Positions 1 through 58,110 of a stretch of 64,000 bases of DNA are shown here, one piece after another. A program made the translations under genes and the position numbers. Numbering within the stretch: the first letter of the stretch is position 1; the number at the start of each line of letters is the position of its first letter. The stretch is taken from the sequence record PV467749.1. The stretch is one strand, 5' to 3'. The notes under the pieces are model-generated. The model saw only the letters and a list, made by a program, of their open reading frames with translations, had not been told where the DNA came from and did not search any database. This stretch comes from a phage.

Positions 1-1806
<1,806 letters not shown>

Positions 1807-1939: not shown

Positions 1940-2539
1940 ATGAGTCTTAATTCTTTTAACCGTAACTATGGTATGTCTGCTACTGCTCGTGAATACTGGG
2001 GTGGTAACAATGGTTTCGTAACCATCGTTGTTGATCTACCAGCAGATGTTGAAGTTGGTACTACCGCTGTTACTTCTGACGGTTCCGAAATTCAAGATGA
2101 AGCACTACAAACTGCAATCAGCAATGCTCAATACAACCAATTCATGATTACCCAACTACTACAACAACGTGCAGTACTAGTTACTACTTCCGTACTAGCT
2201 CTAGACACCGCTGTTGTTATCCCTGCTGACTTTAAAACCGTTGGTGGTAACGTAATCGCGTTTGGTACTAGTGGTGCTGATGTTACAGGTGGTGCTGGTT
2301 CTGTTGCTCTAACCTTCATCTGTGAACGTCAAGACGTATTTGACAAACAAGAAGTTCGCCCAGGTGCTGCTTACTCTGTACCAGTTGATCCAACTGTTGA
2401 ACTAGCTAAAGCTATTGCACAAGCTAAATTCTTCCGTACCAAATCTTATGTTGCTCTAGGTACTGATGGTGTTGGTGATGCTGCTGCCGCTGACGCTGTT
2501 GCAATTAAAGTTCGTGCTGCTCTACCAGTACAACTATAA
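1940..2539 (+). CDS. putative virion structural protein, paralog A (Ala/Val/Thr/Gly-rich)
   Basis: ATG with GGAG RBS; strongly biased codon usage typical of highly expressed late genes; paralogous to next ORF (shared QQRAV..ATS and ER.NVFDK motifs). Confidence 0.7.
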   Translation: MSLNSFNRNYGMSATAREYWGGNNGFVTIVVDLPADVEVGTTAVTSDGSEIQDEALQTAISNAQYNQFMITQLLQQRAVLVTTSVLALDTAVVIPADFKTVGGNVIAFGTSGADVTGGAGSVALTFICERQDVFDKQEVRPGAAYSVPVDPTVELAKAIAQAKFFRTKSYVALGTDGVGDAAAADAVAIKVRAALPVQL

Positions 2540-2554
2540 TAGGGGGACTACAAT

Positions 2555-3244
2555 ATGTCTAATACTAATACTTCTTTTGAACGTATCAATGGTTATTCCT
2601 TTGATAAAATTCTAGGTTACTTCTGTGGCAAAAACGCCCTAGCATCTATCGCAATTAGTAAAATTGGTAATGTTAACGTGCGTGTTACTGGTGCAGTTGG
2701 TTCTTTCGCTGGTCTACAACGTTTCCTAAACACTGATGTAGCTGATGAAATCGTTGCATATCTAAACGAAAAAGGTATCATCCGTATCGATGGTACTCCA
2801 TTTGAAGCAGCAACTCTAGAAGCTGATTATAACGCTGCTTACGCTGCACAAACTAACGTTAAACGTATCGTTGATGTTGTTCAACAACGTGCAGTTATCA
2901 TCGCTACTTCCGAAATCGCTGGCAACGACGTTGAGCCATTTGCAGTTACTGGTTTTACCAACGCTGCTGACGGTATCCTAAGTGTTGGGTCTGTTGATAT
3001 CGCTAGTGCTTCAGTAGTTACTTTCCTCGTTGAACGTGCTAACGTATTTGATAAAGATATTCAATCTTTCCAAGGCGTTCCAAGTACTGAGATCGAAGAA
3101 GGCCGTCTACTAATTGATGACCTAACCGCAGTTCCACTACTCGCTAAAGATGGTGTTACTGAAGTTGTTCTACGTTCCCAAGCTGCTGATGCTGCTGGTG
3201 ACTTCGGTATCAAACTATTCAAATTCATCCCAGCGATGGTTTAA
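2555..3244 (+). CDS. putative virion structural protein, paralog B
   Basis: RBS AGGGGGA 7 nt upstream of ATG; paralog of 1940..2539; followed by strong terminator. Confidence 0.7.
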   Translation: MSNTNTSFERINGYSFDKILGYFCGKNALASIAISKIGNVNVRVTGAVGSFAGLQRFLNTDVADEIVAYLNEKGIIRIDGTPFEAATLEADYNAAYAAQTNVKRIVDVVQQRAVIIATSEIAGNDVEPFAVTGFTNAADGILSVGSVDIASASVVTFLVERANVFDKDIQSFQGVPSTEIEEGRLLIDDLTAVPLLAKDGVTEVVLRSQAADAAGDFGIKLFKFIPAMV

Positions 3245-3261
3245 TAAATTAAAGATAAAAG

Positions 3262-3291
3262 AAAAGGAGAGCTTTTGCTCTCCTTTTTTTA
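3262..3291. terminator. bidirectional intrinsic terminator between convergent genes
   Basis: AAAAGGAGAGC-TTTT-GCTCTCCTTTTTTT; A-run upstream, T-run downstream. Confidence 0.85.
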
Positions 3292-4014
3292 TTTGTATGA
3301 ACGGAACCCTTCAGGTAAACCAGGTAGATTCTCTAACCCTTCGTTCGCATTCACTAGCTTTACGTCATAATCATCACTGAAATCATCCGTAGCTAGTTTA
3401 CGCCCCATGTCTCTAACGAAGTTGTCAATAATTTCTTCTTCGTCATTACCTGGATGACCTTCCGCTTTTAACTTTTTCCAAAAGTATTCATTATAATCAA
3501 AAACAAATTCAACTTCATTTGTTTCTGGATTAAGTACTACATCCAAATCAATCCAAGGTTCTTTACGTAAAGTAAAGATTTCCTTTGAATACTCTTGTTG
3601 TGTAATCTCTTCATAACGATATGCAAACTCGATAGCTTTAAGACGTTTGTCATCACCATCAGGCATTAGTTCGATTACTTCCATATCATACTCTTTTTGA
3701 GTAATTGCACCAGTACTTAATTTAGCATCAAGTAATTTTACATTATACTCATCACGGGTAATCTTGGAATACTTCAATTGTACATCTGCCTGTGCTATTA
3801 GATAATCAAGAGTTTCTAATACATTGTATTTCTTTTTGATATCCAACTGTGCTACATCAACTTCATATGGTGTTAGATATGTAAGTTCTGCAACTAACAT
3901 ATCAGCTTCATAATCATCGTTATAGTAGTATGCTTTCGCAATCTCTTTCGCTTTACCAGAAAGTCCCCAATGAGCGGGGACCATCCAGAAAGGAATAAAC
4001 CTTTTTTTAGCCAT
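3289..4014 (-). CDS. hypothetical protein with three SHOCT-like repeats (IT.xEY...K..L)
   Basis: ORF track start is TTG at 4041; first in-frame ATG at 4014 (MAKKRF); repeats SKITRDEYNVKLL / GAITQKEYDMEV / EEITQQEYSKEI. Confidence 0.6.
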   Translation of the reverse strand: MAKKRFIPFWMVPAHWGLSGKAKEIAKAYYYNDDYEADMLVAELTYLTPYEVDVAQLDIKKKYNVLETLDYLIAQADVQLKYSKITRDEYNVKLLDAKLSTGAITQKEYDMEVIELMPDGDDKRLKAIEFAYRYEEITQQEYSKEIFTLRKEPWIDLDVVLNPETNEVEFVFDYNEYFWKKLKAEGHPGNDEEEIIDNFVRDMGRKLATDDFSDDYDVKLVNANEGLENLPGLPEGFRSYK

Positions 4015-4309
4015 TTGATTTCTTACCAAAAATTTCTTCAATTTTCATCACATAATATGTGTCTTCACCACCACCAAGATCTTCAGTGATAGGAGTGTTT
4101 AGTGATGAACGACCGAATACAACCATATCACCAACACAAATATTATGTTCTGCAATTTGCCCATTAGGTAGTACTTTACCTTCACCAACTGAAATCACCA
4201 TACCAACACATGGTGGTTCCACGTTTCCTAGGATAATACCACCAGTACTTTTATTCTGTGCTTCAATTTGACGAACCAGTACATAATCGTTAATCATTTT
4301 AATTTTCAT
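4007..4309 (-). CDS. GroES-like co-chaperonin (Cpn10; functional analogue of T4 gp31)
   Basis: INDYVLVRQIEAQNKSTGGIIL and GDMVVF align with E. coli GroES ([28 protein letters not shown]); start at in-frame ATG MKIKMINDY. Confidence 0.8.
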   Translation of the reverse strand: MKIKMINDYVLVRQIEAQNKSTGGIILGNVEPPCVGMVISVGEGKVLPNGQIAEHNICVGDMVVFGRSSLNTPITEDLGGGEDTYYVMKIEEIFGKKSNG

Positions 4310-4310
4310 A

Positions 4311-4517
4311 TCAGTAACCTCCAGTGTTTGCAAACCATTTACCACGGAAATAAAGATTAGCACCTTTATCACCAGGGGTAAAAACTTCCAACTTCATAGT
4401 CTTTTCACCATTACATTGAGGACAATCATGAGGTTCTTCACGATTGGCAATTTTTACAATCTTTTCTAAACTGTGTTTACATTCTTCTTTTTCACAACGA
4501 TATGTATATAATGGCAT
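4311..4517 (-). CDS. FmdB-family zinc-ribbon protein (68 aa)
   Basis: MPLYTYRCEKEEC...CPQC resembles FmdB-type CxxC..CxxC zinc ribbon; AAGGAAG RBS; late promoter upstream. Confidence 0.7.
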   Translation of the reverse strand: MPLYTYRCEKEECKHSLEKIVKIANREEPHDCPQCNGEKTMKLEVFTPGDKGANLYFRGKWFANTGGY

Positions 4518-4552
4518 TTTTGTCTTCCTTTACTTATTTTTAAATCAAAAAT

Positions 4553-4573
4553 TTGGGGAACTCCATGTTCCCC
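4553..4573 (-). other. stable hairpin in 5' UTR between late promoter and zinc-ribbon gene
   Basis: GGGGAAC-ATGGA-GTTCCCC on minus strand, directly downstream of TATAAATA at 4576..4583. Confidence 0.45.
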
Positions 4574-4575
4574 AT

Positions 4576-4583
4576 TATTTATA
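4576..4583 (-). promoter_or_regulatory. T4-type late promoter TATAAATA
   Basis: Exact TATAAATA on minus strand about 60 nt upstream of ATG at 4517. Confidence 0.6.
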
Positions 4584-5315
4584 TTAGCAACCAGTTACGT
4601 AAATCTTGTATACCGCAATACCAGTGTCTAGAGTTACGTTTAGCATACCAGTTTTTGTAATACCAAGGGTAACAGATTCTGCGTTAGAAACGCGGGATAG
4701 AGCTTGTAGAACACGATCAATGTTATAACCAAAACCAAGACCTAGTTCACCTTCAGTTTTAGAGAATGCTAGTGCACCAACGTGGTTACTTTTGTTCTTC
4801 TCACCAACGTGGAAGTAAAGAGTATCACCTTCAGTGTATGGAGTTACTAGAGAACTGAAAGATTTAAACACACCAGAGAAGCTTTTTAGTTCCTGAACTT
4901 TAGCTGCACTAGGTGTAACCTGTACGTCATATGGTTGTTCGTGGAAACGAGGCTGGGCTGGAATTAGTTTTTCTGGTTGAACCATGAAAGTAGTGCTTGC
5001 ATCTTCTGCTTTGAATGCTAGGCTCTTAACTGCACCATCTTTCAAATTAGAAGTGATAGTAGTTCCTTCAGTACTATAAGTTTTTAGAGACATTAGACCC
5101 TGTAGAAGACCTATGTTACCAAGACCAAAACGACCTTGAACTTCTGGTACGTCTTCTTTAGTGTGAGCACGCATAACTAGGGTGCGGTCATCGGTGTATG
5201 CTTCCATGTAAACACGCTGTCCATCACCACGGTCTTCACTGCTAACTGCGATACAAGAAAAGTCGATGCCGTTGGTAGTGTTAACTAGGTCACGTAGTAC
5301 GTTGCGTAGATCCAT
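4584..5315 (-). CDS. hypothetical protein; possible gp45-like sliding clamp (weak)
   Basis: 243 aa, ACGGAGAA RBS; N-terminal LRDLVNTTNGIDFS loosely resembles T4 gp45 LKNFATINSGIMLKSG; size and position near DNA polymerase fit a clamp; not verified. Confidence 0.55.
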   Translation of the reverse strand: MDLRNVLRDLVNTTNGIDFSCIAVSSEDRGDGQRVYMEAYTDDRTLVMRAHTKEDVPEVQGRFGLGNIGLLQGLMSLKTYSTEGTTITSNLKDGAVKSLAFKAEDASTTFMVQPEKLIPAQPRFHEQPYDVQVTPSAAKVQELKSFSGVFKSFSSLVTPYTEGDTLYFHVGEKNKSNHVGALAFSKTEGELGLGFGYNIDRVLQALSRVSNAESVTLGITKTGMLNVTLDTGIAVYKIYVTGC

Positions 5316-11118: not shown

Positions 11119-11427
11119 CTATAGCAAGTCGTTTTCCATATCGTCAAGAACAGAATCAACGATGTTCGCTGCTATCTTCTTAGGCATCTTGAACCACTCG
11201 GTGTTAGGTTGCCTTACTGCGTTCATTTGTTTTAGTCTTTTGTGAATTTCTTTCTCTGCTAAACGTGCATCTTCAAAGTGTACTTCATGGTATACCACAA
11301 AATCTCTAAAAGGTGTAGCAGTTTGATATGTCCTTAAACGTTCTGTCATTTCAGATTTACTGGTAAATCCTATCTTAACATAATCAGGCCACGCATCATT
11401 TACTATAACATAACATATCTGTGACAT
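11119..11427 (-). CDS. stand-alone GIY-YIG-like (T5orf172-type) nuclease domain protein
   Basis: ICYVIVNDAWPDYVKIGFT...R...Y fits GIY-YIG/T5orf172 pattern; start chosen at ATG with GGAGA RBS (track ORF starts 15 nt upstream). Confidence 0.65.
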   Translation of the reverse strand: MSQICYVIVNDAWPDYVKIGFTSKSEMTERLRTYQTATPFRDFVVYHEVHFEDARLAEKEIHKRLKQMNAVRQPNTEWFKMPKKIAANIVDSVLDDMENDLL

Positions 11428-11466
11428 AGAAAATATCTCCATCAGTAATATGAAGATATTTATTAA

Positions 11467-13078: not shown

Positions 13079-14254
13079 TTACATGAAAGTAACGTTTTTG
13101 ATAGCGATTTTGCTGTAGTAGTCAGCAGCGTTACCTAGTGAACTGGTGCTATCGGTCAACTGTACATAGCCATATCTGGTTAGAAAAGTTGTAACGAGTT
13201 CCCCAGTGTTAGGGTCCATTACAGTACCGGAAGCCATTAGTGGGATGTATGGGCAATAGAACACACCAGCATCAGTTTCAGCGTTACCTTTGTAACCAAT
13301 TAGGATATCTTCAACATCACTTGCATAGGTATCAACGAAGATACGCATGGTGCTGTTTAGAGTACCAACAAATTTAACGTTAGTTGGAGCTTCGAAAGTA
13401 CCTTCAGTAGTACGTGCAAAACTAGAAGTAGTTGCAGACTGTAGAATGGTTAGAGCGGTTGGAGAAACAACAGCCCAGTTCGCAGCACCACGTTTGGTAC
13501 GACGAGCAACTTCGTTCGCTTGACGGTTGATTAGGGTAGCTAGAGCAGCGTGCTCGTCACCAACGAAGGTCGCAACACCAGTAACTTTAGATTGGTCATA
13601 AGTTACAGCAGCAGCACCAGGTAGTGCACGTAGACGGCTTAGTAGCTCTTGGTCGATTTCAACGGTAACTTCTTGAGCGATTGCAGCCATTAGTTCAGCT
13701 TCAACGTCAATACCATGTTGGGATTGTGCATCTTGTGCAGATTCAACAGTCCAACGTGCAGATAGACGACGAGATTTCGCTTCAACAGTTTCACGTAGAA
13801 TACGGATGTTAACGCGACGACCCATAGTACCTTCTAGTTGGCTAGTAGGAGCAGCTTGTGGGTTGCTGTTGTCTGCGTTTAGGTCACCAGTATAAGACTT
13901 AGCGATTTTGTATGGAGAAAGCATTTCTTCACCAGCGATAACACCAGGAGCGTTGTCAGCATATTGAACACGTAGGGTGTGGATCTGACCAACTGGGCCA
14001 GTCATTGGCTGAACACCGATGATTTCGTTAGCGATTACGGTTGGCATAACACGACGCATAATTGGTAGAATCACTTTGTTTAGAGTAGCGATGTTACCAG
14101 CGGTGGTTGCACCAGAAGTAGCAGATTCGTTTAGCATTAGTTTACGATGGTTATCAAGTACGGTTTCCATTACGGACTTACGAGTACCTTGTAGACCTTC
14201 AACTAGTTTCTCTTTAACTGCTACCCATTTGGATTCATTTAGTAGTTGTGACAT
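13079..14254 (-). CDS. major capsid protein (T4 gp23-like)
   Basis: IIGVQPMTGPVGQ vs T4 gp23 ICGVQPMNSPTGQ; VEAKSRRL...SAQDAQSQHGIDVEAEL vs IEAKSRQL...LAQDLRAVHGMDADAEL; IGYKGNAETDAGVFYCPY vs VGYKGPNEMDAGIYYAPY; AAGGAGAT RBS, TATAAATA upstream, strong terminator downstream. Confidence 0.92.
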   Translation of the reverse strand: MSQLLNESKWVAVKEKLVEGLQGTRKSVMETVLDNHRKLMLNESATSGATTAGNIATLNKVILPIMRRVMPTVIANEIIGVQPMTGPVGQIHTLRVQYADNAPGVIAGEEMLSPYKIAKSYTGDLNADNSNPQAAPTSQLEGTMGRRVNIRILRETVEAKSRRLSARWTVESAQDAQSQHGIDVEAELMAAIAQEVTVEIDQELLSRLRALPGAAAVTYDQSKVTGVATFVGDEHAALATLINRQANEVARRTKRGAANWAVVSPTALTILQSATTSSFARTTEGTFEAPTNVKFVGTLNSTMRIFVDTYASDVEDILIGYKGNAETDAGVFYCPYIPLMASGTVMDPNTGELVTTFLTRYGYVQLTDSTSSLGNAADYYSKIAIKNVTFM

Positions 14255-21343: not shown

Positions 21344-21488
21344 AACATTCCCTTTTAATAGATGTATTATAGAAATATTTATGAATCTATAACGAATAAA
21401 AAAGACCCATCTATAACATTTGTCCAATTTGTCCCATTTTTTGGTAATAAATACTACAGAGACATTTATTACATGGAGATTTAATAAA

Positions 21489-26724: not shown

Positions 26725-27756
26725 TTATAGTGATCTGTAAATTTGGATTAGAAGATTTTTATCGAACATAGGTGAATCAATTTCCATGATTTGTTGTAAC
26801 ACAATCTCATCAACTGACTCAGTACTTTCAAAGCTTTCACCATCTTCAATAAGTTCTTTGATACTTTGCTTGCTAGTAACAACGTTAAACTCACGAATGT
26901 TATAAAGTTTAGTAAAAGTATCACGAATAAAACTAATCTCATCAGTAGTGATAGCAATATCAACTTGAACCTTTGAAATAGTATTGTCTTGAAGATAATA
27001 ACTTGGATCTGTTAATAGTTCTGAAAGTGTAAATGTTCTATATTTTGGTGCTTCTGACCAAGAATGGAAAGTTGGTTCTTTACCATGTTCTAAAATCATC
27101 ACACCTCTTGCATCATCCCATGTATCAGAAAAGTTATGTGGGAAACAGTTACCTGTGTAAATTACACGAGTTCCTTTGGATGTTGTTTTTGCTTGTCTCT
27201 TGTGGAAATGCCCACTAAAAACATACTCACAACCACCAAAAGAACCTTCAGTCTCTTTACCATGATCTGGCATCTCAACCATTTTATTGAGCAAGTAGCC
27301 AGGTAACTCTAAGTGACCAAAAACATACTTACTTTTAAGTTGAGGTAGAACTTTGTATTCATCTTCAATCATAAATGGAATGAAAGTACAATCATCAAAT
27401 GTTGTGATTTCATTAATGAACTCGATGTTCTCATAAACTTGTGCCATATTAATACTAGTAATGTCACGTTTATTTTTATGATACATGTCATGGTTCCCAA
27501 CTAAGAAGTAAACCTTATCAAAGTTGTCATTTAGTAATTGTAGAATTTGTAAACCATAGTTTAATGTTTGAATGTTAATATTACTGCGGTTATGGAAGTA
27601 ATCTCCCATAAACACGCATACAGTAATACCATTTTTCTTAGCAAGTTCAATCATAAACTTGATGAAGTTCAAACAATCTTCGTTGTGCTGCTTGCTGTTA
27701 TTCTTTAATCCTAAATGAATATCAGTAAATGTAATTGCTTTATCAAATAGAGCCAT
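26725..27756 (-). CDS. recombination/repair nuclease subunit, SbcD/Mre11-like phosphoesterase (T4 gp47-like)
   Basis: N-terminal FTDIHLG and GDYFH, GNHD phosphoesterase motifs; start moved from TTG to ATG (MALFDK) with AAAGGAAA RBS. Confidence 0.9.
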   Translation of the reverse strand: MALFDKAITFTDIHLGLKNNSKQHNEDCLNFIKFMIELAKKNGITVCVFMGDYFHNRSNINIQTLNYGLQILQLLNDNFDKVYFLVGNHDMYHKNKRDITSINMAQVYENIEFINEITTFDDCTFIPFMIEDEYKVLPQLKSKYVFGHLELPGYLLNKMVEMPDHGKETEGSFGGCEYVFSGHFHKRQAKTTSKGTRVIYTGNCFPHNFSDTWDDARGVMILEHGKEPTFHSWSEAPKYRTFTLSELLTDPSYYLQDNTISKVQVDIAITTDEISFIRDTFTKLYNIREFNVVTSKQSIKELIEDGESFESTESVDEIVLQQIMEIDSPMFDKNLLIQIYRSL

Positions 27757-28582
27757 CTTCGTTTTTCCTTTCAATCATGTTCATTTCAATTTCGATTTGA
27801 CGAGTGTGTGATGGTGTAAAACCATGCATCTCAAGTAAATCGTCTCGGATGTTACGAACATTTTTCTCACTATTAAGAATCGAACGGAAACTATTGTTAA
27901 CGAACGAAGTATAGTAAGAGAAAGGATTCAACTGTACTGCTGGTTTATCTTTTTTGTAAAGAATACTCTCTTTAAAGAGAAGTGCGTTTTTAACTAATTG
28001 TATTCTGGCATCACCCATCATTTCATCCAAATATGTATAGTTTCTATAGTTGGATTTGTGTGAGATTTCCTCTGCCAGTTTAATGAACATTTTACCTAGT
28101 TCATTAGTGATTTTACCATGAACAGTGCTGAATTCTCCGTCTTCAAGATCACCTTTCCAGTGAGAACGAACGACTTCGTACAGAATACCTTCTTCATCTA
28201 CAATGTAATGTTTGAATGGTTCAAAATTAACTCTTGTATCTGCTGGGATATGTTCATCGGTAATTACACGAATAACCACCTCATCGATAGGTACATCAGT
28301 CAGTACTAAATTGTGCTCATCTGCGTATTCCTTCGCTTTCTTCGCACTCATACCTTCTTTTTCACGAATTGCATCAAGCATTTCATTGTTGAGACGTTTA
28401 ATACGTGCTGCTTTAGCTTTATCTAAAAGTTCTGCTGTGATTTCGGATTCATCAAAAACGATATAATCGTACATACTGTAGCACTTATCAAGTAACCAGC
28501 AATATGAGATTTTACTTTTTTGTATCTCACGAAGTAAATCAGCATTGTTAAGATACTTTTTACGCTTCGGCCTATTTGTCAT
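27743..28582 (-). CDS. late-transcription sigma factor (T4 gp55-like) with large internal insertion
   Basis: KYLNNADLLREIQKSK vs T4 gp55 KYNYVNNKELLQAIIDWK; NPFSYYTSFVNNSFRSILNSEKN vs [23 protein letters not shown]; start at ATG (MTNRPKRKK) with GGAGAG RBS. Confidence 0.8.
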   Translation of the reverse strand: MTNRPKRKKYLNNADLLREIQKSKISYCWLLDKCYSMYDYIVFDESEITAELLDKAKAARIKRLNNEMLDAIREKEGMSAKKAKEYADEHNLVLTDVPIDEVVIRVITDEHIPADTRVNFEPFKHYIVDEEGILYEVVRSHWKGDLEDGEFSTVHGKITNELGKMFIKLAEEISHKSNYRNYTYLDEMMGDARIQLVKNALLFKESILYKKDKPAVQLNPFSYYTSFVNNSFRSILNSEKNVRNIRDDLLEMHGFTPSHTRQIEIEMNMIERKNEDGSI

Positions 28583-28639
28583 TATTTCAACTCTCCATGT
28601 TTTAAATCCAATAGGTACATTCCTTGTACCATCAATGTT

Positions 28640-28668
28640 ATTATAGCACCAAAAACGTCTTTGTCCCA
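28640..28668 (-). promoter_or_regulatory. sigma70-like promoter with extended -10 (TGCTATAAT) upstream of gp55-like gene
   Basis: Minus strand gggacaaagacgtttttggTGCTATAAT; same GTGCTATAAT -10 context as rnh promoter. Confidence 0.45.
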
Positions 28669-28670
28669 CG

Positions 28671-28678
28671 TATAAATA
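28671..28678 (+). promoter_or_regulatory. T4-type late promoter TATAAATA for baseplate operon
   Basis: cacgTATAAATAcatc about 35 nt upstream of ATG 28714; divergent from gp55 promoter. Confidence 0.65.
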
Positions 28679-28713
28679 CATCAAATGTTCCCTTCTTATG
28701 GAGAATCAAAAAG

Positions 28714-39987: not shown

Positions 39988-40023
39988 AATCAAATGAATG
40001 AACGAATTATATGGAGTCCAAAA

Positions 40024-43000
40024 ATGACTAATAATTTTAAGTTTCAACCTACACAGATGGCTGAAGCAGTACAGAAGAAGCTTTTCATAAAAAGATTGCC
40101 TGAGTGGATGCAAGGCTTAGAAGATATTCAGAAAGTCAGTGATGATGTTATCCAACAATGGTTTAATCCGGCTGAAAACGAATTAGTTGACGGCTACATT
40201 GGTGACATGGGTTCTCCGGCAGCAGCAGGGAACATCTTCTTACACGAGTCAACAGTCGCACGTCAACTATATCAGTTGTCCACTGCGTATGTCTCAAGAA
40301 ATGATGACTCCAGCATTCGTTCAATTCAATTTTATGATGATCTAGTTGGCTATATGAATCATTACGGGGCACTAACCGAAAATGAAAGCCGTTTGTTTAA
40401 TGGTAAGTTCTATTCATGGACCCCACCAATTAACCCTAACAAAATGAACAACTACAGTTCATATCTATGGGATTCCAAGAATAGCTATAATATCGCAACT
40501 CCAGATTATATTGTAATGGAACGTGGTGCAGAAAATGGAAACACTTGGTCACTACAAAACTTCTGGTACACATTAGGTGAAACTTTAGAAGATGGTACAA
40601 TCCTAACTGAAGAACTAATGCAAGATTCCCGTTTTGTTCGTGCTCGTGCTCCAATTATCGAATACAATAAAAATATCGAACTAATGAACTACGGTACTAA
40701 ATTCCGTGGGACAGTTGATTTGTTCTCTGATATTATTAAACCTGAAGATATCGTACAAAAAGATATTAACAGCGGTATACGTATTGATGGTATTATTCCA
40801 CAAGATGGTATGCGTATTCTTTTCACCAGTATTGGTAACAATGGTGAAAACAACCGAATTTATAAAGTATATGTTAAACGTATGCAAGATGGAACACGTG
40901 TGTATGGTCTAGCATTAGACCCAGACGAAGAATCTGAAAGCCGTCCGAGTGGTGAACCACAAGATGGTGACGTAGTTCTTATTATCAAAGGTAATGAATT
41001 TGGTAACAGTTCCATGTATTGGGACGGTTCTCATTGGATTCAAGCACAGTCTAAAACTTCTGTGAACGTATTTCCACAATTCCAATTGTATGACCGTAAT
41101 GGTGTTAAACTAAACAACACTACTACCTATCCATCAAGTACTTTTACTGGTTCTTCATTATTTGGTTTTAAAATTAACTATAATTATGCAACCGATAGCG
41201 TTTATGGTTATAACATTGAACTGGGTGATTACAATTATTACACCTATGAGAATTTCCTACAATCAACTCGTTATACCTACGAGCATTTGGGTGTGGAAGT
41301 TGAAATTGATGGACTATATTACTATAACGTAATTGGTGAAGGTAATACAATGAACCTAGAAACTGATTGGGTTCGTAGTACTGAATACTCCAAACAATAT
41401 GTTAAACAAACTCCACAGGTTGAACGTACAGTAATGTTCCGCGTGTTCAGTACTGTTTATGACATGGAAAGTTTCAAAGATCCAGTTGAAGGAATGTATG
41501 CTTATGTAATTGAAGTTGACAGAACTTATCAATATTACAAAGCAGAACGTGAAACATATCTTGATTGGCATGTTATCGTTGGTGATGGGGTACAAAGCGT
41601 TAAGTACAATCATACATTTGAATTGGCACAAAAAGTACTAGATAATTCTGATGATATTATCGAACTAGTTGTTGATGGTGTGGAAATAAAAGAATACACC
41701 AAAACTGTAGTTAATAATCAAGTACAAAGTATTACAATTGATAGCTCTGTTGATTTGGATGAAGATTCTGTTGTACAAATAAGAACTTATAGTAGCACTA
41801 TCACTCCTAATAAAGAGTTGGGTGCATATGAAGTTCCAATTAACCTACAAAATAACCCATATAATTCAAACATTGAATACATCAATCAAGGTGATTACAC
41901 CCTGCACTTCCAAGATATTATTCAAAAGAATATTACATCTGGTTCTGCTGATGACTTTAACAATTACGAAGAACGTTTGGCTGCTGGTTTGGTTAATAAT
42001 GGTGTAGGCACTAAAATTATTCAAAACGAAGCGTCCATGTTACCACTAATGGCACATACCGCTAATGAAGATATTGATTTGTTTGAATCAATCATGTTTA
42101 TGCAAGCAGAATACTTCCGCTTCATTAACAAGTTCAACACTCAAATGCTTCGTTTGTATGAAGAAGACCCAAGTGCTTTTCTTGGTAATAGTGCATCAAA
42201 CATCGTAGATGCGATTCTAACAGCTATTAATATGGGACGTGATAGTTCATTCCCATTCTACTATGACAACGTTGCAAGCACTGCTGGGTTTATTCGTGCA
42301 TTTGTCCCACCAACTCCACAGTTCTTGGGTATTTTGCAAGCTTATACACCACAAAAAGCAACATTCTTAACTGCTGGTAGTAAATCTAGCTGTTATAATA
42401 TCAGTCATACTGGTGTTATTTCAAAAGCATACCGTGTTATCAATGGTGTTGATAAAATGGATGACGTAGTTTTTGAATTGGAAAATCGTATCTTTAATAG
42501 TATTGACCTTACTTTCAAGGATATTGATTATAAACCAGTACTAAACAGTGAAGACCTATTCCCAACTCCATATTTCACTGGTACTGATTATAGTGCAGAA
42601 GAAAAGAAAACTCTATTACTACGTGGTTACATTAACTTCACAGCAACCAATGGTATTAGTAACAGTACTCATGATTATGATGCAAATAACTGGAGAACTT
42701 GGAACTATACTGGTAGTTATTATGTTGTTGATGGTCAACGTACTGAAATTCCTGCTCGTGGTTCATGGCGTGCAATCTATACTGACCAATATGGCACATA
42801 TCGTCCAGCAACCCATCCGTGGGAAATGATGGGCTTCTCTCAACGTCCTACTTGGTGGAACCAAGAATACGAACCAACCGCAGTTCAAGTTGGTGAACGT
42901 GAGGGTGATGTTGTTTATGTGTATGAAGCACTAGTAATGAATGAAAATGGTGATTTGGTCCCAAGTGGATTGTGGGATATTGATGGTACTATCGGTGACA

Positions 43001-46000
43001 GCAGCACTGGTACTATTTTGTCCGGTGAACGCCGTGGTCAATATGACAAATACAAGCGTTTCGGTGTACAGCCATTTAAAATCACTAAGACTGGCGAGAA
43101 AACCAGTACTGGTATTGATATTTGTGAAGTTGAGTATATTGCACCTGAAGTTTTAGGTCTTGTTAGTGGTAATTTAGATCATCGTGCAGAACCGTGGGCT
43201 TATGGTGACATGGGTGACATGGAATTCACTTACATGAACACTGCGATGTTTGCTTATGACCAAATGCTTCTTCTATACAAAGCAAAACCAGCACAGTTTG
43301 CAAACTATTACTGGGATACCCGTAATGATAACCTTAAACCAGTTTATACTGATGGTTCACAGTTCCTTTATGGTGAAACCCGTAAGCGTCTAAACTTTGA
43401 CAGTGCTACATTAGTACATGGTGAGAAAAATACCCGTACTATCGGTTATCAAATGTTTGTTAGTGACTATTTGATGTATCAGAATAAGAACATTACCACC
43501 AAATACGGTGACGTTGTTCGTTCTTCTTATGTCAATGTCGCTCACAAAATTGGTGGCTTTACTAAAGCAGACCAATTGACATTCACTGCTAAATCTTTCG
43601 GTTTGATTTCACAAGAAAACCAAACTATCGGTCTAGTTCGTTCCAATAACATTCGCGATGAGCAAATGAGTGCAGTAAAAATTACTTGGAATGGTAGTGC
43701 ATATCAAATTGATGGTTATGATTTAGTTGGTGCTAAATTTAAATATAAAATTCCAGTTAAAAATGGAAGAAAAGTAACTCTTAAATTGGAAGACAGAACT
43801 GTTGTTCATTACAATGAATGGAAATCTGAAGGTACATTAGAATATGGTAAAATATTCAATACATACCAAGAAGTTTATACTTTCATTTGTGGATATGGTG
43901 AATATCTAAAAGAACATGGCTGGATTTTTGAAGATGTAAATGATAGTGGTGCTCAACAAGACTGGACAACTATTGCTAAAGACTTTGTTATTTGGAGTCA
44001 GAATAATTTAAGTACTGGTGAGTTCATCTCCTGTACTCCAAGTGCAGCTAATGCTAAATTTGGTGCAGATTTTGGTTCAGTTCAATCTGTTACACAGAAC
44101 AGTGGTGGTGTTTGGTCACTACTCGATGATGAAAACCAAGGTATCCGTCAATATGAAATCGAAACTTCGCGTATCGGTAACGTATTCACAGTGAGAACTA
44201 CATCTGAATCACAAAAACGTATGGCGTTGATTCGTTTGAGCCTAAGTTCATATGAACACGCAGTTGTTTTTGATGATAAAACTATCTTTGGTGATTACAT
44301 TTACCAACCAACTTATGGTGCTATTCAAGAATTGATTAAAATGTATGGTTACATTACTGGGGCATGGACTGGTCGCCTACAAGCACCTGGTTTCATTATC
44401 CTAGAAGCAGGAACTTTACCATCATTTGAAAAATTAGTAACTGATTTTGAATTATATTATAATAGTGAAACTCCTGTGAGTGATGTTCAGCTTCAAGAGT
44501 TATCAAATCACTTGATTGGCTATCAAACTCGTGATTATCTACAACGTATGATTAGTAGTGATGTTAGTCGTGTTGATTTCTATAAAGGATTCATTCATGA
44601 CAAAGGTACTAACCAAGTAATGGAAAAAGTACTACGCGTTTCTAAATCTTACGACACTGATGAATATAAAGCACTACAGGAATGGGCATTTAAGATTGGC
44701 ACTTATGGTAATATCAATGGTAAGAAAAATCTACAATTTAAACTAATCAATGACCAATTTAAACAACAACCACAGATGGTTTCGTTTGATGTTAATGCTA
44801 CATCAAATGGTACTGGTAATGGTATTGTTTATTACGGTGAACAAGGGGTTGACTCACGCTGGATTACTCGTCCAAATGGTAAGTTTTCATTCCCAATGCG
44901 TAGTGGAAGAAGTGAGAATATCCAACTTCCAGACATTGGCCCAGTAACACTAGATGAAATTTCATACGTTACTAAAGATTTCAGTACTGCATATAATGAT
45001 CGTATCAATTATATGAATAACAGTGGTGAAATACCAGATTCTGTATGGATGTTTAAAGATGGTAATGATTTGTGGAATATTTTCGAACTAGTAGACACTG
45101 AAGTTGAGATGCTCTCTATCGTTCCAATTGAAAATACCGATGTATATGCAGAACAATTCTGTAAAGTAACTCTAAGTGATGATATCCCACTAAATGATGG
45201 TGATTATTATTACTTTGTTGATGAAACTAACTTTATGCCAGATACATTGACTATAGAAAGTCAATATTATACTGCGGGTAATGACCCTAGAGTTATGGTA
45301 GTTCCGTTTGACACTTCAATAACTATTGACTTCACTGATCCTGATACTCGCCCACGCTTGTATCGTTATGTTTCACGATTCAGTACTGAAGAGATGCGTC
45401 AGGAATACATTGACAGAAAATATAGTTTTAAAGCTCCACAAAGTACTTTGTTTGACCGCCCAACCACATATGATGAGCGTACTAACATTACTGCGTTGTA
45501 CCTAAACGTGTTTGACCCAATCAACGGTGTTATTCCTGGTGCAGCGATGCAGAACGTTACCTACACATCTCCAGTTGACCCAGCACAATACAACAGCAAT
45601 GGTGAATTGATTCAAGCATGGGGTGCTGATAAAGTTGGTCAGGTTTGGTGGAACACCAGCACTGCTTTCTACTTAGATTACACTCGTGCAATCTATGATG
45701 CTGATGGTAATGTGGATGTTGATGCAACAAATGAATATAAACGTTATAACTGGGGCAGATTGCTACCGCACAGTACTGTTGATGTTCTTGAATGGGTATG
45801 TTCGCCAGTGGAACCATATAACTGGGACAAATACTGTAAAGACGTTGCTAACAAAAATAAAAACAATACTATGTACCTACCAAGCGGAACCGCATTGGAA
45901 GATAATTATAGTACGTTCTTAGAATATGATAGCACAACTGATACTTATGTTACAAAATACTATTTCTGGGTTCGTGATACAATCTATGTACCACCATTGC

Positions 46001-49000
46001 ATTCCAGAACTAAATCTTGTACTGATATTGCTCGTATTATTAAAGAACCAGCACAGCTTAACATTCCTTGGTTTGCACCAATCAATGAAAGCTCGTTCAT
46101 TCTAAGTAATATGCAATTTGAAGTCAACGATGACACAAGTATTTTAACTGTTTCTTATTACATGGATAATACTGAAGTTATTAAACATGACCAGTATCAA
46201 TTATGTAAAGAAGGTGATAGCTATAACTTCAATCCATCAATCTGGACTTCTATGTGGAATTCTATGATTGGTCAAGAAACTACTGAATCAGGAACTGTTA
46301 TTGATTTACTATATCCTTTAGTACCAAACGGTTTAGGTTCTAATAAGACTTGGTTCCAAGATGTAATTGAAGCTCGTAGAAACTTTGTAGAAAGTGCAAA
46401 TAACTATTATCGCTCACAGAATATAACAACTAACACTGTTCTAATGGACGAAGTGTTTAATGTTAAAACTACTGAAGTTAACCCGAATGAAGTATCATAT
46501 CGTGTACTAACTTACAATAGTGAATTAGTCATTGCACCTGAAAGTGACAAGTTCAAAGAAAACGACGCAGTACTAGTAAGTACTAGTGGTGTATTACCTA
46601 ACCCACTATCAACTAGCTCTGTATATTTTGTGCATATTGATGCTAATGGTTATATTCATCTAATGAATAGTCCATCAAGTGCTGGTAGTGTGGTTACCAT
46701 TACATTGGAAAACCGTGGTGAAGGTCAACAGAAAATGATTAAACAATCAGACTATGTTGAAGCACTAGGAACTTCATTGGACATGACCCAGTACTGGTCA
46801 CTAGCAGATTGGTATGATATTGGTTACGATAAAAATACTGCATATACACAAGAATCCAGCCTAGAAGATGCAAACACTAAGAACTATCAAGTTGGTGACA
46901 TTATCAGAATTACAGATGTTGATGGCATCTGGACATTGTACATTAAAGCACAATCACGTGATTCAGTTTACTGGAAAGCAATTGGTCGTGAAAATAGTAC
47001 AGTTGAATTGAATGATATGTTATACGCTGACTATACAGTTCGTGATGCTAATGGTTCGTTGAGTAATCGTGAGATTAACGTTCGTAAAGCACTAGCTTTA
47101 TTGAAGAACTCATTCGACTTACATCAGAGTGAAATTGTGTTTGATATGGTTAAGTATGTTCACGTAGAACAAAGCGTTGTTGATTGGGTATTCAAAACAT
47201 CTTACATTTATATTGTAGGTTTAGAACAATCATTAGTACAGAACTATTCCAACGACAACTTGATTAATCAAATCGTTGAGTACTTTGAAGAAGTTAAACC
47301 ATATAGAACTAAGATTCGTTCCCAGATTGAACAGAAAACATCAGATGATGATTTAATTAAAGGTTTGTGTAATGATTTAGATCCTAATGGCTATATATTT
47401 GCAGATGGGACTTGGGTTAAAACGGAAAAAGACATTTGGGATTATGAATATGCTCAATTCAATGAGGTAACTCAACGTTGGGAGCAAGTTGGTGAATTGC
47501 CAAGTGATTTCGTAACACCTAATCGCCGTTTCCAAGAAATTGATGTTATCATGCACTACGACAACACTCAATGTAAACCAAATGATAATTTGGCAAGTGT
47601 TGATGTATTGGAAGAAGTGAATAAGAAATATCAATCTAATGCACAAGATGTTGTTAGTAATTTTGAATTACAACGTTACAAATATACATTCCCAGAATAC
47701 AGTGATGAAGATTTCGACCTATTGGTTGCTTATCAGATGCAATTGTATTACCCAGAATTGAACGTAACTCTAGGGATTGCTTACGGTGTTAACCAATGGT
47801 ATGCAGACCATGCAGATGATTTGGTAGCAACCGCAGAATTCACAGAAACGTTGAATCGTGTATATAAAGAATCAACACAAAATGAAATGTTTAATGACGT
47901 AAATCATTACGTTCAGTATAACACACTCTCTAACCGTTTGAAATTGTACACAGGTGCAGATGATGAAGTAATTCATGATGAAGTTGGATGTGGATTTAGT
48001 GGGTTAACCTATGATGATAATCCAAGCACCAGACTACCGTTTGGTTATGCATCCAGTACTGATTATAACTTTGGTTACTTTGAAGTTAGTAGTGAGTTGT
48101 ATAAAAAGTATGTTTCTTTAATTAAAGAAAACAATACTACTGCAACTGATGATGAAGTTAGAATTATACTTGAAGTTGAATATGGTGTTTATTCATATCG
48201 CCATGTAGATGAAGATGGAAATCAACGATTCTACAATGACGCAATTCATGTATTGTCCGGTATGCGTGGTTTGTATGACAAAGATGCTACCGACCATTAT
48301 GAAAAGGCTGAAGAAATACTAAGTAGAATGCCTATTGATATTCATGCATTTACTATGATGCCACGAAAATATGTTTATGTTAATGTTAATGGTGTATACG
48401 AGAGTATCCCAGATGACCAAAGCATTGATGATTTCATGGAAGACAAATTCATAACTGACGGTCAACTAGTTCAATTGGCAGAAATAAATCTTGATGACTT
48501 ACCTCTTGATAGAAATAACCCAATGTACAGTGATTATCAGCACATCCTAGATAGCATCACCGATGCTAAGTACTACGATGATATGAATGCATTTGATAAC
48601 CTAGCACTTGAATCACAAACTTCCGAGTTAAAATGGGAAGTTGAAGGTGACGAAGTAGATCCGTACATAATCGACATTTCTGATATTAACCCATCAGGAA
48701 GAAAGATTGGTCAGATTCGCTTCACAGTTGATGGTTATGGATTCAATAGTGTTTCACTAGTTCAATTGAGAGACAATAGTAGATATAAAACTGAAGGTAT
48801 GGTTATTATCAACCCTTATAAAACAACAGAAGCAATTGTTAGTATTCCTTCTTACGCTAAGATTGAAAATGATATTAGTAAATCATACAGTAAGTATGAT
48901 GAAAAATACTTCTATAAAATTAAATCAATTGTTAGTGATACAGAAGCTGAAGTAATTGACAATACCCTATCTGATGGTGATAAGGTTATGATATTCACAA

Positions 49001-49996: not shown

Positions 49997-50030
49997 AAAA
50001 AGGAGAGCATTTGCTCTCCTTTTCTTTTTT
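49997..50030. terminator. bidirectional terminator between giant ORF and ClpA gene
   Basis: AAAAAGGAGAGC-ATTT-GCTCTCCTTTTCTTTTTT; near-identical stem to terminator at 3262. Confidence 0.8.
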
Positions 50031-52317
50031 ACGCAATAACTTTTTCTACTGCTTTAGTTCGTTTAGGTTTGATAGCCAATTTACCATCAATCACATCAAA
50101 CGTTACGTTACCACCATTAACCAGAGAACCACACAACATCTCTTTAGCTAGTGGAACACGGATGTTTTGCTCAATAGTGCGTTTCATTGGACGTGCACCC
50201 ATCCCAACTTTAACACCATTTGTTGCCAACCACTCACGTGCCGCTTTGGTTAGTGAAACTTTAACTTTGCGGTCTTTGATTTGTTCATTCAAACTTCCCA
50301 TGAACTTATCAATGATGCTGTCAATCGCTTCGCTGCTTAGGTCTTTGAATGTCACAATACTATCGATGCGGTTGATGAATTCAGGTGGCAAGAATGCTTT
50401 AATCGCTTTATCTTGTGCTGTATCACTACCGCTCATCCCAATACTACGCTTGGTTGAATCTGCTGCACCAAGGTTAGTTGTCATAATAACAGTTACGTTA
50501 TTGAAGTAAACAGTTTTACCTTGTGAACCAGTCAAACGTCCTTCGTCCAGAACCTGTAGGAAGGTTAGTAGTACTTTACGATCAGCTTTTTCGATTTCAT
50601 CAAGCAACAGTACTGCATTCGGGAACTGCTCAATCTTGTCGAGTAGCAGACCGTTACCGGAATCGTGACCAACATAGCCTGGAGGTGAACCAATCAGTTT
50701 AGCAACAGTATGTTCCTGTGAAAACTCGGACATATCGAAACGAATCAGTTCAGAGCCAGTTGCATCAGCCAGTGCTTTGGTAATTTCAGTTTTACCAGTA
50801 CCAGATGGCCCAACAAACATGAATGCACCTTGAACACTTGATTTATCACGCAGACCAGCACGAGCTACCATCACGTTATCAACCAGTTTCTGTACTGCTT
50901 CTTCTTGACCGTATACACGAGAACGTAGTGCATCTGGTAGATTACGCATACGCTCACTTTCAGTGCAAGCAACCACGTTAATATCTAGGTTTGCGATACC
51001 TGCAACAACTTCTTGAATCAGTGCAACAGTGATGATGTTATCATCAGTTTCACGAGAACGTACTTTCGCTGCCGCCGCATCCATTAGGTCGATTGCTTTG
51101 TCAGGGAAGTGTTTGTTCTTCAGGAACTTATCACTTAGTGTAATAACTGCATCCATTGCTTCAGTACTGAACTCTACGTTATGGAAAGTTTCATAAGTAG
51201 ATTTCAAACCATTCACAATCGCACGGGTTTCATCAATTGTTGGCTCAACTACATCAATTTTCATGAAACGGCGAGTTAGTGCACTATCTTTTTCGATGTT
51301 TTTACGATATTCATCGTAAGTTGTTGCACCGATTACACGAATCTCACCACGAGATAGTGCAGGTTTGAGCATGTTACTCATATCCATAGAACCGTTGCTT
51401 GCTGAACCAGCACCAACCATAATATGGATTTCATCGATGAACACAATAGTGTTTTCACGTTTCTTCAGTTCTTTGAGTAGGTTATCGATACGTTCTTCGA
51501 ACTCACCACGGTACTTAGTACCAGCAGTCAGTGCACCTACGTTCAGAGACAGAATTTCAACATCTTTAAGATGCTCTGGTACTTCACCATCAGCGATTGC
51601 CTGTGCTAGACCATCAATGATTTGAGTTTTACCAACACCAGCTTCACCAGTCAGGATGGCATTCTTCTTAGTCTTACGGGCCAGAGTTTCAATCAGTGCA
51701 GAAAGCTCTTTCTGGCGACCAATCATTGGGTCAAGTTTACCTTCTTTTGCAAGTGCGGTTAGGTTAGTGGTGTAATCTTCTAAACCTTTTTGTTTGGACG
51801 ATGGTTGCTGTTGTGCCACTTTTTTCTCCCCAGTTGGCTCATCACTAATGCTTTGAAGGTTGATTCCGTTGTCGATTGCTTCTACGTGCTTCTGTAGAGT
51901 TCGTGCTGCTTCAGTACAAGTGATACCCTCTTCACGCAATGCTGCTTCTAGTGCAGTATTTGGGAAGGACAAACACTCAAACAGTACAAAATAAGCATCA
52001 ATTGAGAAATCATCACGTTTAAGTTGCTCAATTACTGATTTCTTAGAAAGTTCCTGAACTACACGGTTCACGAGAAGTGATGTGCGGTTCGCTTCATCAC
52101 CATCAGCACTTTTAGGTGCATGTGGGAATGTTGTATTCTTCAGATATGCAATCAAACGACTGTGTAGGTTGTCTGCATCGATGTTCATATCTTCAAATAC
52201 TGCTTTGATGCTATCGATTGTCAGTACTGTAGCACTTAGATGGTCAATAGTCAAGAATGTATGACCCAGAGAAGTTGCCAGTTCGTCGCTTTTTTTGAAT
52301 AATTGGGTAAGATTCAT
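50029..52317 (-). CDS. clpA: ClpA-family AAA+ unfoldase (two ATPase domains plus N-domain)
   Basis: Walker A GEAGVGKT and GPSGTGKT; SIGM loop at the position of the ClpA IGL ClpP-docking loop; C-terminal MGARPMKRTIEQNIRVPLAKEMLCGSLVNGG matches E. coli ClpA; start at ATG (MNLTQLF) with AGGAGA RBS; consensus sigma70 promoter upstream. Confidence 0.9.
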   Translation of the reverse strand: MNLTQLFKKSDELATSLGHTFLTIDHLSATVLTIDSIKAVFEDMNIDADNLHSRLIAYLKNTTFPHAPKSADGDEANRTSLLVNRVVQELSKKSVIEQLKRDDFSIDAYFVLFECLSFPNTALEAALREEGITCTEAARTLQKHVEAIDNGINLQSISDEPTGEKKVAQQQPSSKQKGLEDYTTNLTALAKEGKLDPMIGRQKELSALIETLARKTKKNAILTGEAGVGKTQIIDGLAQAIADGEVPEHLKDVEILSLNVGALTAGTKYRGEFEERIDNLLKELKKRENTIVFIDEIHIMVGAGSASNGSMDMSNMLKPALSRGEIRVIGATTYDEYRKNIEKDSALTRRFMKIDVVEPTIDETRAIVNGLKSTYETFHNVEFSTEAMDAVITLSDKFLKNKHFPDKAIDLMDAAAAKVRSRETDDNIITVALIQEVVAGIANLDINVVACTESERMRNLPDALRSRVYGQEEAVQKLVDNVMVARAGLRDKSSVQGAFMFVGPSGTGKTEITKALADATGSELIRFDMSEFSQEHTVAKLIGSPPGYVGHDSGNGLLLDKIEQFPNAVLLLDEIEKADRKVLLTFLQVLDEGRLTGSQGKTVYFNNVTVIMTTNLGAADSTKRSIGMSGSDTAQDKAIKAFLPPEFINRIDSIVTFKDLSSEAIDSIIDKFMGSLNEQIKDRKVKVSLTKAAREWLATNGVKVGMGARPMKRTIEQNIRVPLAKEMLCGSLVNGGNVTFDVIDGKLAIKPKRTKAVEKVIA

Positions 52318-58001: not shown

Positions 58002-58110
58002 TGTTAAGCCCTTTTAGTAGTGAACTTTCATTTATTTATTAATGGCAACGAAATGTATTTTGTACTGATAAATATTGGTATATGACATTAACTCATACAA
58101 GGGAAATATT

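Follow-up and report, generated by a model that had tools for sequence, protein, structure and literature searches.

A divergent GroES-like co-chaperonin in a three-gene unit of a Rak2-like jumbo phage

Three tightly packed genes on the minus strand of a phage genome, the middle one encoding a relative of the co-chaperonin GroES, raise the question of which chaperonin this protein would serve, which protein it would help to fold, and whether its two neighbors share in the task. The genes lie at positions 3289-4583 of the 64,000-nucleotide stretch of sequence record PV467749.1 that was analyzed here (hereafter, the window) and encode a 68-residue FmdB-type zinc-ribbon protein, a 100-residue GroES (Cpn10) protein, and a 241-residue helical-repeat protein that we call X. 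An initial annotation had described the locus as a late operon and its genes as a capsid-folding helper set, and all the features that it named are present where it placed them. The reading that we favor, and to which we give a little better than an even chance as a whole, is that the GroES docks on the GroEL of the host and is encoded within a three-gene unit that is probably expressed late, the flanking genes not forming a dedicated set with it.

Between positions 3200 and 4700, the DNA is 100% identical to that of Escherichia phage BF17 (383 kb), a Rak2-like jumbo myovirus, and 99-99.7% identical to that of fEgEco12, WPEC3, and others. Identity is about 83-84% with 121Q/PBECO4 (Asteriusvirus) and 65-70% with Rak2, GAP32, CBB, Munch, Yersinia phage fHe-Yen9-04, and Serratia phage BF. 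Rak2-like jumbo myoviruses are distant relatives of T4. The GenBank/RefSeq records of fEgEco12, 121Q, Rak2, GAP32, CBB, and XaC1 annotate all three genes, calling them 'zinc ribbon / CxxC-CXXC-SSSS / FmdB-like', 'co-chaperonin GroES', and either 'virion structural protein' or 'hypothetical protein'; there is no discussion of the locus in the fEgEco12 paper. Both the GroES gene of Rak2-like jumbo phages and the hypothesis that its product works with host GroEL are already known from GenBank and several papers, and what we find here mostly confirms existing annotation.

The GroES-like protein and its candidate partner

The product of the middle gene (4309..4007, minus strand) matches the Pfam Cpn10 profile PF00166 over profile positions 1-92 of 93 (61.1 bits against a cut-off of 21.1; E = 1.1e-16) and phrog_3188, 'co-chaperonin GroES', at 9.9e-27. 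BLASTP aligns its residues 1-67 with E. coli GroES at 37% identity, and a sequence search of the PDB returns matches that are all cellular Cpn10 proteins (1e-11 to 1e-9), with no match to T4 gp31 at E ≤ 1. A provisional gp31 sequence shows no significant similarity to E. coli GroES (E = 5.3) or, by BLASTP, to the phage GroES (E = 0.2). An AlphaFold2 (AF2) model of the phage protein has a predicted local distance difference test score (pLDDT) of 76, falling to 57 over residues 21-30 in the loop. Its best structural matches are GroES chains in GroEL-GroES complexes (E = 5e-7; template modeling (TM) score 0.65-0.69), whereas T4 gp31 (1G31) ranks 34th at 17% identity. The sequence identity, the PDB matches, and the structural matches all bear out the view of the initial annotation that this Cpn10 stands nearer to bacterial GroES than gp31 does.

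The mobile loop, whose absence the initial annotation had said would refute its reading, is present. In an alignment of 12 phage homologs with E. coli GroES, it reads KSTGGIILGN--VEPPCVG, and residues G23-G24-I25-I26-L27, which align with G23-G24-I25-V26-L27 of the E. coli protein, are conserved in 24 phage homologs. The loop as a whole is two residues shorter than that of E. coli and contains a conserved Glu-Pro-Pro-Cys. The roof β-hairpin is intact (GEGKVLPNGQIAEHNI, reading GEGKVLPNGQ..., aligned without gaps to GNGRILENGEVKPLDV of E. coli), and the barrel core is conserved across the phage GroES family. Judged by its sequence, the 100-residue protein is a genuine but divergent Cpn10 of a phage lineage rather than an ortholog of the cellular type, and its 37% identity to E. 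coli GroES indicates that it was not recently copied from the host. Membership in the family of T4 gp31 and RB49 CocO was also considered and was rejected on the BLASTP comparison with the provisional gp31 sequence, the presence of the roof, and the shorter loop.

Orthologs with at least 49% identity (tblastn) are confined to Rak2-like phages and occupy one place per genome; the single relative that tblastn finds beyond these phages, at 40% identity, is in Vibrio phage 2.275.O. A second GroES-like open reading frame (ORF), CBB_131, is reported in the CBB paper (PMC5259590) and must be very divergent, because tblastn gives only the one place in each genome. The Rak2 authors named a Coxiella GroES as the best match of the Rak2 protein, with 42% identity. 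Within the 64-kb window, a local profile search of all ORFs found no second Cpn10.

The initial annotation had left the chaperonin partner unnamed. A tblastn search with E. coli GroEL matches 252 phage records; the 60 of these that were listed include no Rak2-like coliphage, and the ten commonest organism names of the 252 do not include Escherichia. Because no Rak2-like coliphage appears in the listed GroEL matches and the window holds no second Cpn10, the partner of the phage GroES is most likely the GroEL of the host. This partnership has been put forward before: recruitment of host HSP60 was proposed by Iyer et al. for the HSP10 of jumbo-phage groups 2 and 3 (PMC7824862), and Buttimer et al. 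suggested that CBB uses host GroEL (PMC5259590). Vibrio phage 2.275.O (MG592671, 349 kb) has a GroEL of its own, 69% identical to that of E. coli and encoded ~138 kb from its GroES.

Most likely, the phage GroES would form a heptameric lid that docks on host GroEL through the GGIIL of its mobile loop; a glycine followed by three hydrophobic residues is the key motif of such loops (PMC5649160). The cage beneath the lid would be of normal rather than enlarged size, because the roof hairpin is kept and the loop is two residues shorter. In gp31 and CocO, it is the deletion of the roof that enlarges the cage (PMC5649160). The phage protein would thus add co-chaperonin capacity for phage proteins and act as a functional counterpart of T4 gp31 and RB49 CocO. 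T4 gp23 is the classic example of a protein that needs GroEL together with the phage co-chaperonin gp31 (PMC3012670), and the window encodes a 391-residue major capsid protein of the T4 Gp23 family (13079..14254, minus strand; Pfam Gp23, 9.5e-90) with CTATAAATAAT upstream of its gene. This capsid protein is most likely the prime candidate client of GroEL and the phage GroES, and a role of the latter in capsid folding is plausible by analogy. Binding to E. coli GroEL is, however, not guaranteed, because the phage GroES falls far below the NCBIfam equivalog and subfamily cut-offs (the best model, NF001527, gives 54.7 bits against 120) and its loop carries a conserved Pro-Pro.

The window has a second chaperone-type gene, which encodes a 762-residue double AAA+ ATPase of the ClpA/ClpB type (50029-52317, minus strand; AAA_2 3e-49, ClpB_D2-small 1e-21) and is preceded by a perfect sigma70-like TTGACA-17-TATAAT, an early-type promoter.

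The transcription unit and its putative late promoter

The initial annotation had described the three genes as overlapping or abutting, and their junctions agree. The zinc-ribbon gene (4517..4311, minus strand) ends in TGA, a single T follows, and the GroES gene begins with ATG, its GGAGG Shine-Dalgarno sequence lying within the final zinc-ribbon codons, while the reading frames of GroES and X (4014..3289, minus strand) share 8 nucleotides (ATGGCTAA). Upstream lies a gene for a 243-residue clamp-like protein (4584..5315, minus strand; phrog_12062, function unknown; 'sliding clamp protein' in fEgEco12) that has sigma70-like hexamers on its 5' side. Downstream, the TAA stop codon of X abuts the stem of a bidirectional intrinsic terminator (3259-3290, both strands; 11-14 bp stems with T runs), which X shares with a convergent pair of virion-protein genes on the plus strand. 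An equivalent hairpin stands 3' of X in 121Q, Rak2, GAP32, CBB, XaC1, and the Vibrio phage. The order of the module is DNA polymerase, clamp-like gene, three-gene unit, inverted virion-protein pair, and RNase H (742-1800, minus strand), the last being the next minus-strand gene past X. Zinc ribbon, GroES, and X are one three-gene transcription unit at the edge of this replication module. In GAP32, CBB, and XaC1, an additional phosphoesterase gene is found 5' of the zinc ribbon.

Directly past the stop of the clamp-like gene (4584), the minus strand carries an exact copy of the T4-type, late-promoter-like box TATAAATA (4583..4576) that the initial annotation had seen upstream of the three genes. 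The exact octamer occurs five times in the window, against 7.5 ± 2.7 expected, and was rejected as evidence by itself, not being enriched. The distribution of the 7-mer ATAAATA is more telling. Fifteen of its 19 copies are intergenic, in sense orientation, and no more than 100 nucleotides from a start codon, in a sequence of which 4.6% is intergenic, and coding DNA holds 3 copies, compared with 7-30 for 7-mers of the same composition (13-30 for 19 of the 20). Where the genes 3' of ATAAATA have names, most serve morphogenesis: the major capsid protein, the portal operon, baseplate hub and tail-tube genes, and a tail fibre. The motif also stands 5' of a 371-residue head-cluster gene adjoining the capsid gene, the abundant virion pair at 1940-3244, and an ORF of 3333 residues; the genes for DNA polymerase, clamp, RNase H, sigma factor, and the Clp-type ATPase do not have it. 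ATAAATA is a real upstream signal of morphogenesis genes in the window phage, and the same motif has been published as the putative late promoter of CBB and GAP32 (PMC5259590). A sigma factor of the gp55 late type, which would be the one to recognize ATAAATA promoters, is encoded at 27743..28681 (minus strand; phrog_12791, 'sigma factor for late transcription', 1.4e-152; phrog_234, 1.5e-16). Late expression of the three-gene unit is plausible from these sequence features, and the unit would probably be switched on from the TATAAATA box.

Other copies of the motif are found in distinctive settings. Its avoidance inside genes across the window suggests selection against spurious late promoters. 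Divergent, back-to-back boxes occur at 21376 (minus) and 21447 (plus) and at 58033 (minus) and 58068 (plus), both pairs in short spacers between divergently transcribed morphogenesis genes. The box of the 3333-residue ORF (39994-49995, plus strand) starts 13 nucleotides before the ATG, which would leave almost no 5' leader if it is a promoter. A GIY-YIG nuclease gene (fEgEco12 annotation; 11119-11442, minus strand) stands between the gene blocks for tail fibre and capsid, and its AATAAATAT box starts 21 nucleotides before the start codon. The virion-protein genes inverted between X and RNase H (1940-2539 and 2555-3244, plus strand) are paralogs, both phrog_9326, with an ATAAATA box of their own at 1887 followed by a 5' hairpin at 1901-1915. 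In both Rak2 (gp106w/gp107w, proposed tail tube) and CBB (91% and 56% coverage), homologs of this pair rank with the most abundant proteins of the virion.

One nucleotide past the box of the three-gene unit, a terminator scan identifies a stem-loop (UGGGGAAC-AUGGA-GUUCCCCA, then AAAUUUUUG; 4554..4574, minus strand) that is terminator-like and follows the clamp-like gene. Its 8-bp stem is rich in G+C (-13.6 kcal/mol; z = -2.5 for the 73-nucleotide region). Elsewhere in the window, a terminator that shares a spacer with a late box precedes the box (e.g., 35713, 39994). The hairpin past the clamp-like gene is conserved in 121Q, Rak2, GAP32, CBB, and XaC1; the stem is GGGGAAC/GTTCCCC in most and GGGAGC/GCTCCC, changed yet still paired, in CBB, and the T-run that follows is strong in GAP32, CBB, and XaC1 and weak in the window phage, 121Q, and Rak2. 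The hairpin may stop or attenuate transcripts arriving from the clamp-like gene, while a late transcript that starts within its 5' arm would escape termination. With a start 6 nucleotides past the box, as in T4 geometry, the hairpin energy left would be -2.1 kcal/mol. A late-type box placed one nucleotide before a conserved terminator hairpin would be a simple and testable design for a temporal switch.

Several observations weigh against late transcription from this box. First, GAP32 and CBB lack the box, while Rak2 (TATAAGTA, one mismatch) and XaC1 (AATAAATT) have it in imperfect form; the late promoters listed by the CBB authors include Porf_271 and none for CBB_266-269. Second, GAP32, CBB, and XaC1 have a strong hairpin and T-run only ~15 nucleotides before the phosphoesterase gene. 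Expression in these relatives must therefore use read-through or an unrecognized promoter, and the same could hold in the window phage. Finally, a search of the literature turned up no transcriptome for any Rak2-like phage. Of the late operon proposed by the initial annotation, what stands is its plausibility, given the ATAAATA statistics and the gp55-type sigma factor; its timing is unproven, the box being absent in GAP32 and CBB.

The strongest competing explanation takes these points further and holds that the unit is not late. It would be transcribed in the middle period by read-through from the clamp promoter, GroES would serve the general proteostasis of a ~600-gene phage or the folding of replication proteins, and the box would be lineage-specific or due to chance. 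The unit does lie inside a synteny block of DNA polymerase, clamp, and RNase H, and the relatives without the box have no room for a separate promoter past the terminator. Termination in the window phage is possibly leaky, because AAA separates the T-run from the hairpin stem. The lack of enrichment of the exact octamer fits this explanation as well, and the XacN1 authors tied the GroES of this clade to a need to translate many genes. Nevertheless, a chance box in the 66-nucleotide spacer is unlikely, because 15 of the 19 ATAAATA copies stand upstream in sense orientation and the motif is avoided in coding DNA. Phage 121Q keeps an identical box at identical spacing, at 83% DNA identity, although the hairpin loop and T-run alongside differ, and the polymerase, clamp, and RNase H genes of the window, with which the unit would be transcribed, are without the motif. 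We therefore regard middle-period transcription as unlikely, though with a chance that is still appreciable, and continue to favor a unit that is probably late.

The two flanking genes

The first gene of the unit was called an FmdB-type zinc ribbon in the initial annotation, an assignment upheld by scores above the cut-offs of both TIGR02605 FmdB (44.1 bits against 31.3) and Pfam Zn_ribbon_8 PF09723 (42.5 bits against 34.4; E = 6.4e-11); the protein also matches phrog_13665 at 2e-39. Its N-terminal 42 residues constitute the ribbon, with cysteines 8, 13, 32, and 35 forming a four-Cys set that is conserved in six phages, and its C-terminal 26 residues form a tail that reads ...FTPGDKG...WFANTGGY. 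Full-length homologs are found in 92 phage records, and the listed ones are all Rak2-like. The N-terminal ribbon alone occurs in ~450 further phage records, which are T4-type as far as listed, and several of these ribbons adjoin goF. None of the listed ribbon-only matches is found under a GroES annotation, and no zinc ribbon stands beside the GroES of Vibrio phage 2.275.O.

Protein X matches phrog_13349 (7e-111) and has no Pfam match. Its sequence begins with an N-terminal PFW.xPAHWGLSG and ends in a small α/β domain (DYNEYF...GHPG) and an acidic tail terminating in YK. The AF2 model (pLDDT 82.8) has four helical hairpins, a β-hairpin, two more helices, and a disordered acidic tail, and fold searches gave no informative match. 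Three helices each begin with an IT..EY motif (residues 85-90, 104-109, and 137-142), and these motifs are conserved in homologs. The initial annotation had read them as three SHOCT-like repeats, and while the motifs themselves are present, the score is not: Pfam SHOCT PF09851 gives 8.9 bits with the whole of X (E = 1.8) and 14.3 bits with a 70-residue repeat fragment (E = 0.034), against a cut-off of 27. Among 40 distant homologs, two reach E ≤ 0.01 (best 2.4e-5), and DMAP_binding and GvpG match X about as weakly as SHOCT does. Membership of X in the SHOCT family was rejected on these sub-threshold scores; by sequence, 'SHOCT-like motif' is a fair description of what X contains, and 'SHOCT-repeat protein' is not established.

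The 'virion structural protein' label of X (phrog_13349, RefSeq) traces, as far as found, to one mass spectrometry (MS) data set, in which the Rak2 homolog gp105 was detected in virions with 5 peptides and 21.7% coverage (PMC3622015 supplement). The CBB paper remarks that the Rak2 structural set also held terminase, PhoH, and SSB, and the CBB homolog, CBB_269, is not among the 55 virion proteins detected in CBB. In PA5oct, the X homolog is not MS-flagged and the neighboring RNase H is. The label deserves caution, because it goes back to a single MS data set and the conserved partner of X is RNase H.

How far X belongs with GroES can be judged from its distant relatives. Word-index searches with GroES or X return only Rak2-like relatives, and an exhaustive profile search was run for X. 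It finds at least 661 clusters (50% identity) at E ≤ 1e-3 and 390 at E ≤ 1e-10, making X a member of a large uncharacterized phage family. The members are 124-349 residues long (150 listed), vary in repeat number, and share an N-terminal PF...P..WGL.G and a C-terminal EPWV...LDWN..F...L...GY.G. We surveyed the neighborhoods of distant X members in 80 IMG/VR viral loci, which were scanned by local profiles. A QueE radical-SAM gene lies upstream in 63 of 75 loci and a T4-type RNase H/5'-3' exonuclease gene downstream in 60 of 75, with MetK in 29 loci. GroES is found within 4 kb of X in 2 of the 80 loci, 3.6 kb away, by a profile that could miss gp31-like co-chaperonins, and a zinc ribbon near X in none of the 80. 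The RNase H gene starts inside the X gene in PA5oct and Atu_ph07; in the window, only the inverted virion-protein pair separates the two. Overlap with neighbors by stop and start codons is frequent among X-family genes.

Because the RNase H and QueE neighbors are conserved and GroES and the zinc ribbon are not, X is probably an old member of the polymerase-clamp-RNase H neighborhood. The Rak2-like lineage seems to have gained GroES and the zinc ribbon upstream of X, the ancestral neighbor of RNase H. The capsid-folding helper set that the initial annotation saw in the grouping fails on these neighbors and counts.

A dedicated module for capsid folding or morphogenesis, in which the flanking proteins would be adaptors, specificity factors, or obligate clients of GroEL and the phage GroES, is by our estimate quite improbable. 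Its best arguments, which also count against separate roles for the three genes, are that their stop/start coupling is conserved across genera (121Q, Rak2, GAP32, CBB, and XaC1) and that the GroES-X pair persists in the distant Vibrio phage 2.275.O, where GroES is followed by a shortened X homolog (hhalign 99.7%). In addition, helical-hairpin repeats such as those of X are a common protein-binding architecture, and the Rak2 homolog of X was found in virions. However, the conserved order is weak evidence, because the whole region is syntenic in the relatives, and in the 80 X-family contigs X has neither an adjacent GroES nor a zinc ribbon, its overlap in PA5oct and Atu_ph07 being with RNase H instead. 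The ribbon is missing even from the Vibrio-phage pair and is a domain common elsewhere in T4-like phages. As for the virions, X was not detected in those of CBB, and the Rak2 set that contained it held PhoH, SSB, and terminase too. More doubtful still is a phage-specific co-chaperonin module in which the zinc ribbon, X, or both bind the GroES heptamer or GroEL and retarget the chaperonin to the gp23-type capsid protein, so that specificity would come from accessory factors and not from an enlarged cage. Slightly likelier than a module of all three genes is that X alone serves the T4-type RNase H/clamp replication module of jumbo T4-related phages, as an accessory factor that is widespread yet unrecognized. 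In the reading that we favor, only the middle gene of the unit would be a chaperone gene, and the zinc-ribbon protein and X would be co-translated with GroES with no sign of joint function.

Finally, it is highly improbable that the Cpn10-like protein is no GroEL lid at all but acts as a decoy, sequestering or inhibiting host GroEL, or is a barrel put to structural or other non-chaperone use, since its divergence, its scores below the NCBIfam GroES cut-offs, and its shortened loop with a conserved EPPC and C-terminal insertion are outweighed by a glycine and three-hydrophobic motif, roof hairpin, and barrel core that are conserved in the phage family, by a modeled fold that matches GroES as seen in GroEL complexes, by the far more divergent gp31 and CocO, which still act as lids, and by its absence from the CBB virion MS lists.

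Comparison with known systems

The window locus is a member of the BF17/fEgEco12 type, and nothing essential in it differs from the annotated GroES genes of Rak2-like phages. Rak2 ORF104, GAP32_262, CBB_268, and 121Q gp615 are orthologous to its GroES, 53-92% identical, and found in the same place with the same two neighbors. Of these neighbors, the zinc-ribbon protein resembles the FmdB family (TIGR02605/PF09723) in its N-terminal 42 residues and four Cys ligands, and differs from it in that the first Cys pair is CX4C, not CXXC, in most Rak2-like members and in the 26-residue tail, which among the matches listed is found only in Rak2-like phages. In X, the IT..EY at the start of a helix and the hydrophobic residue downstream resemble the SHOCT core, but the motifs of X are internal repeats in an array of helical hairpins rather than a short C-terminal domain.

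The phage GroES matches the cellular Cpn10 family (PF00166; E. coli GroES, PDB 1AON chain O) over its full length, with the 37% identity extending over 67 residues. It shares with E. coli GroES the Gly-Gly and hydrophobic tripeptide of the loop (IIL in the phage and IVL in E. coli) at the same residue numbers, as well as the roof hairpin, and its predicted β-barrel superposes on that of cellular GroES at the TM scores of 0.65-0.69 given above. Unlike the cellular protein, it lacks two residues on the C-terminal side of the loop, where Glu-Pro-Pro-Cys is conserved, and in the Asteriusvirus branch a four-residue insertion, LGGG, is found in the C-terminal third. The phage gene also differs in having no adjacent groEL, and its product scores under half of the NCBIfam GroES cut-offs.

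With T4 gp31 and RB49 CocO, the phage GroES shares a setting: a T4-related myovirus with a capsid protein of the Gp23 family that encodes the small chaperonin subunit only and relies on host GroEL, the last of these being our most likely reading for the window phage. The expected mechanism is also shared, namely a heptameric lid that docks by the hydrophobic tripeptide of its loop. The two systems differ in build, since gp31 and CocO are without the roof hairpin and have a longer loop and an enlarged cage, whereas the phage GroES keeps the roof and has a shorter loop. They differ further in that a sequence relationship to gp31 is undetectable by BLASTP with the provisional gp31 sequence and in that the capsid protein of the window is smaller. 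Because the roof is kept, the loop is shorter, and the capsid protein has only 391 residues, specificity here would not be explicable by an enlarged cage. Should the gp23-family capsid protein prove to need the phage GroES, the 'bigger cage' by which gp31 is explained cannot apply here, and Rak2-like phages would offer a clean comparison system in E. coli.

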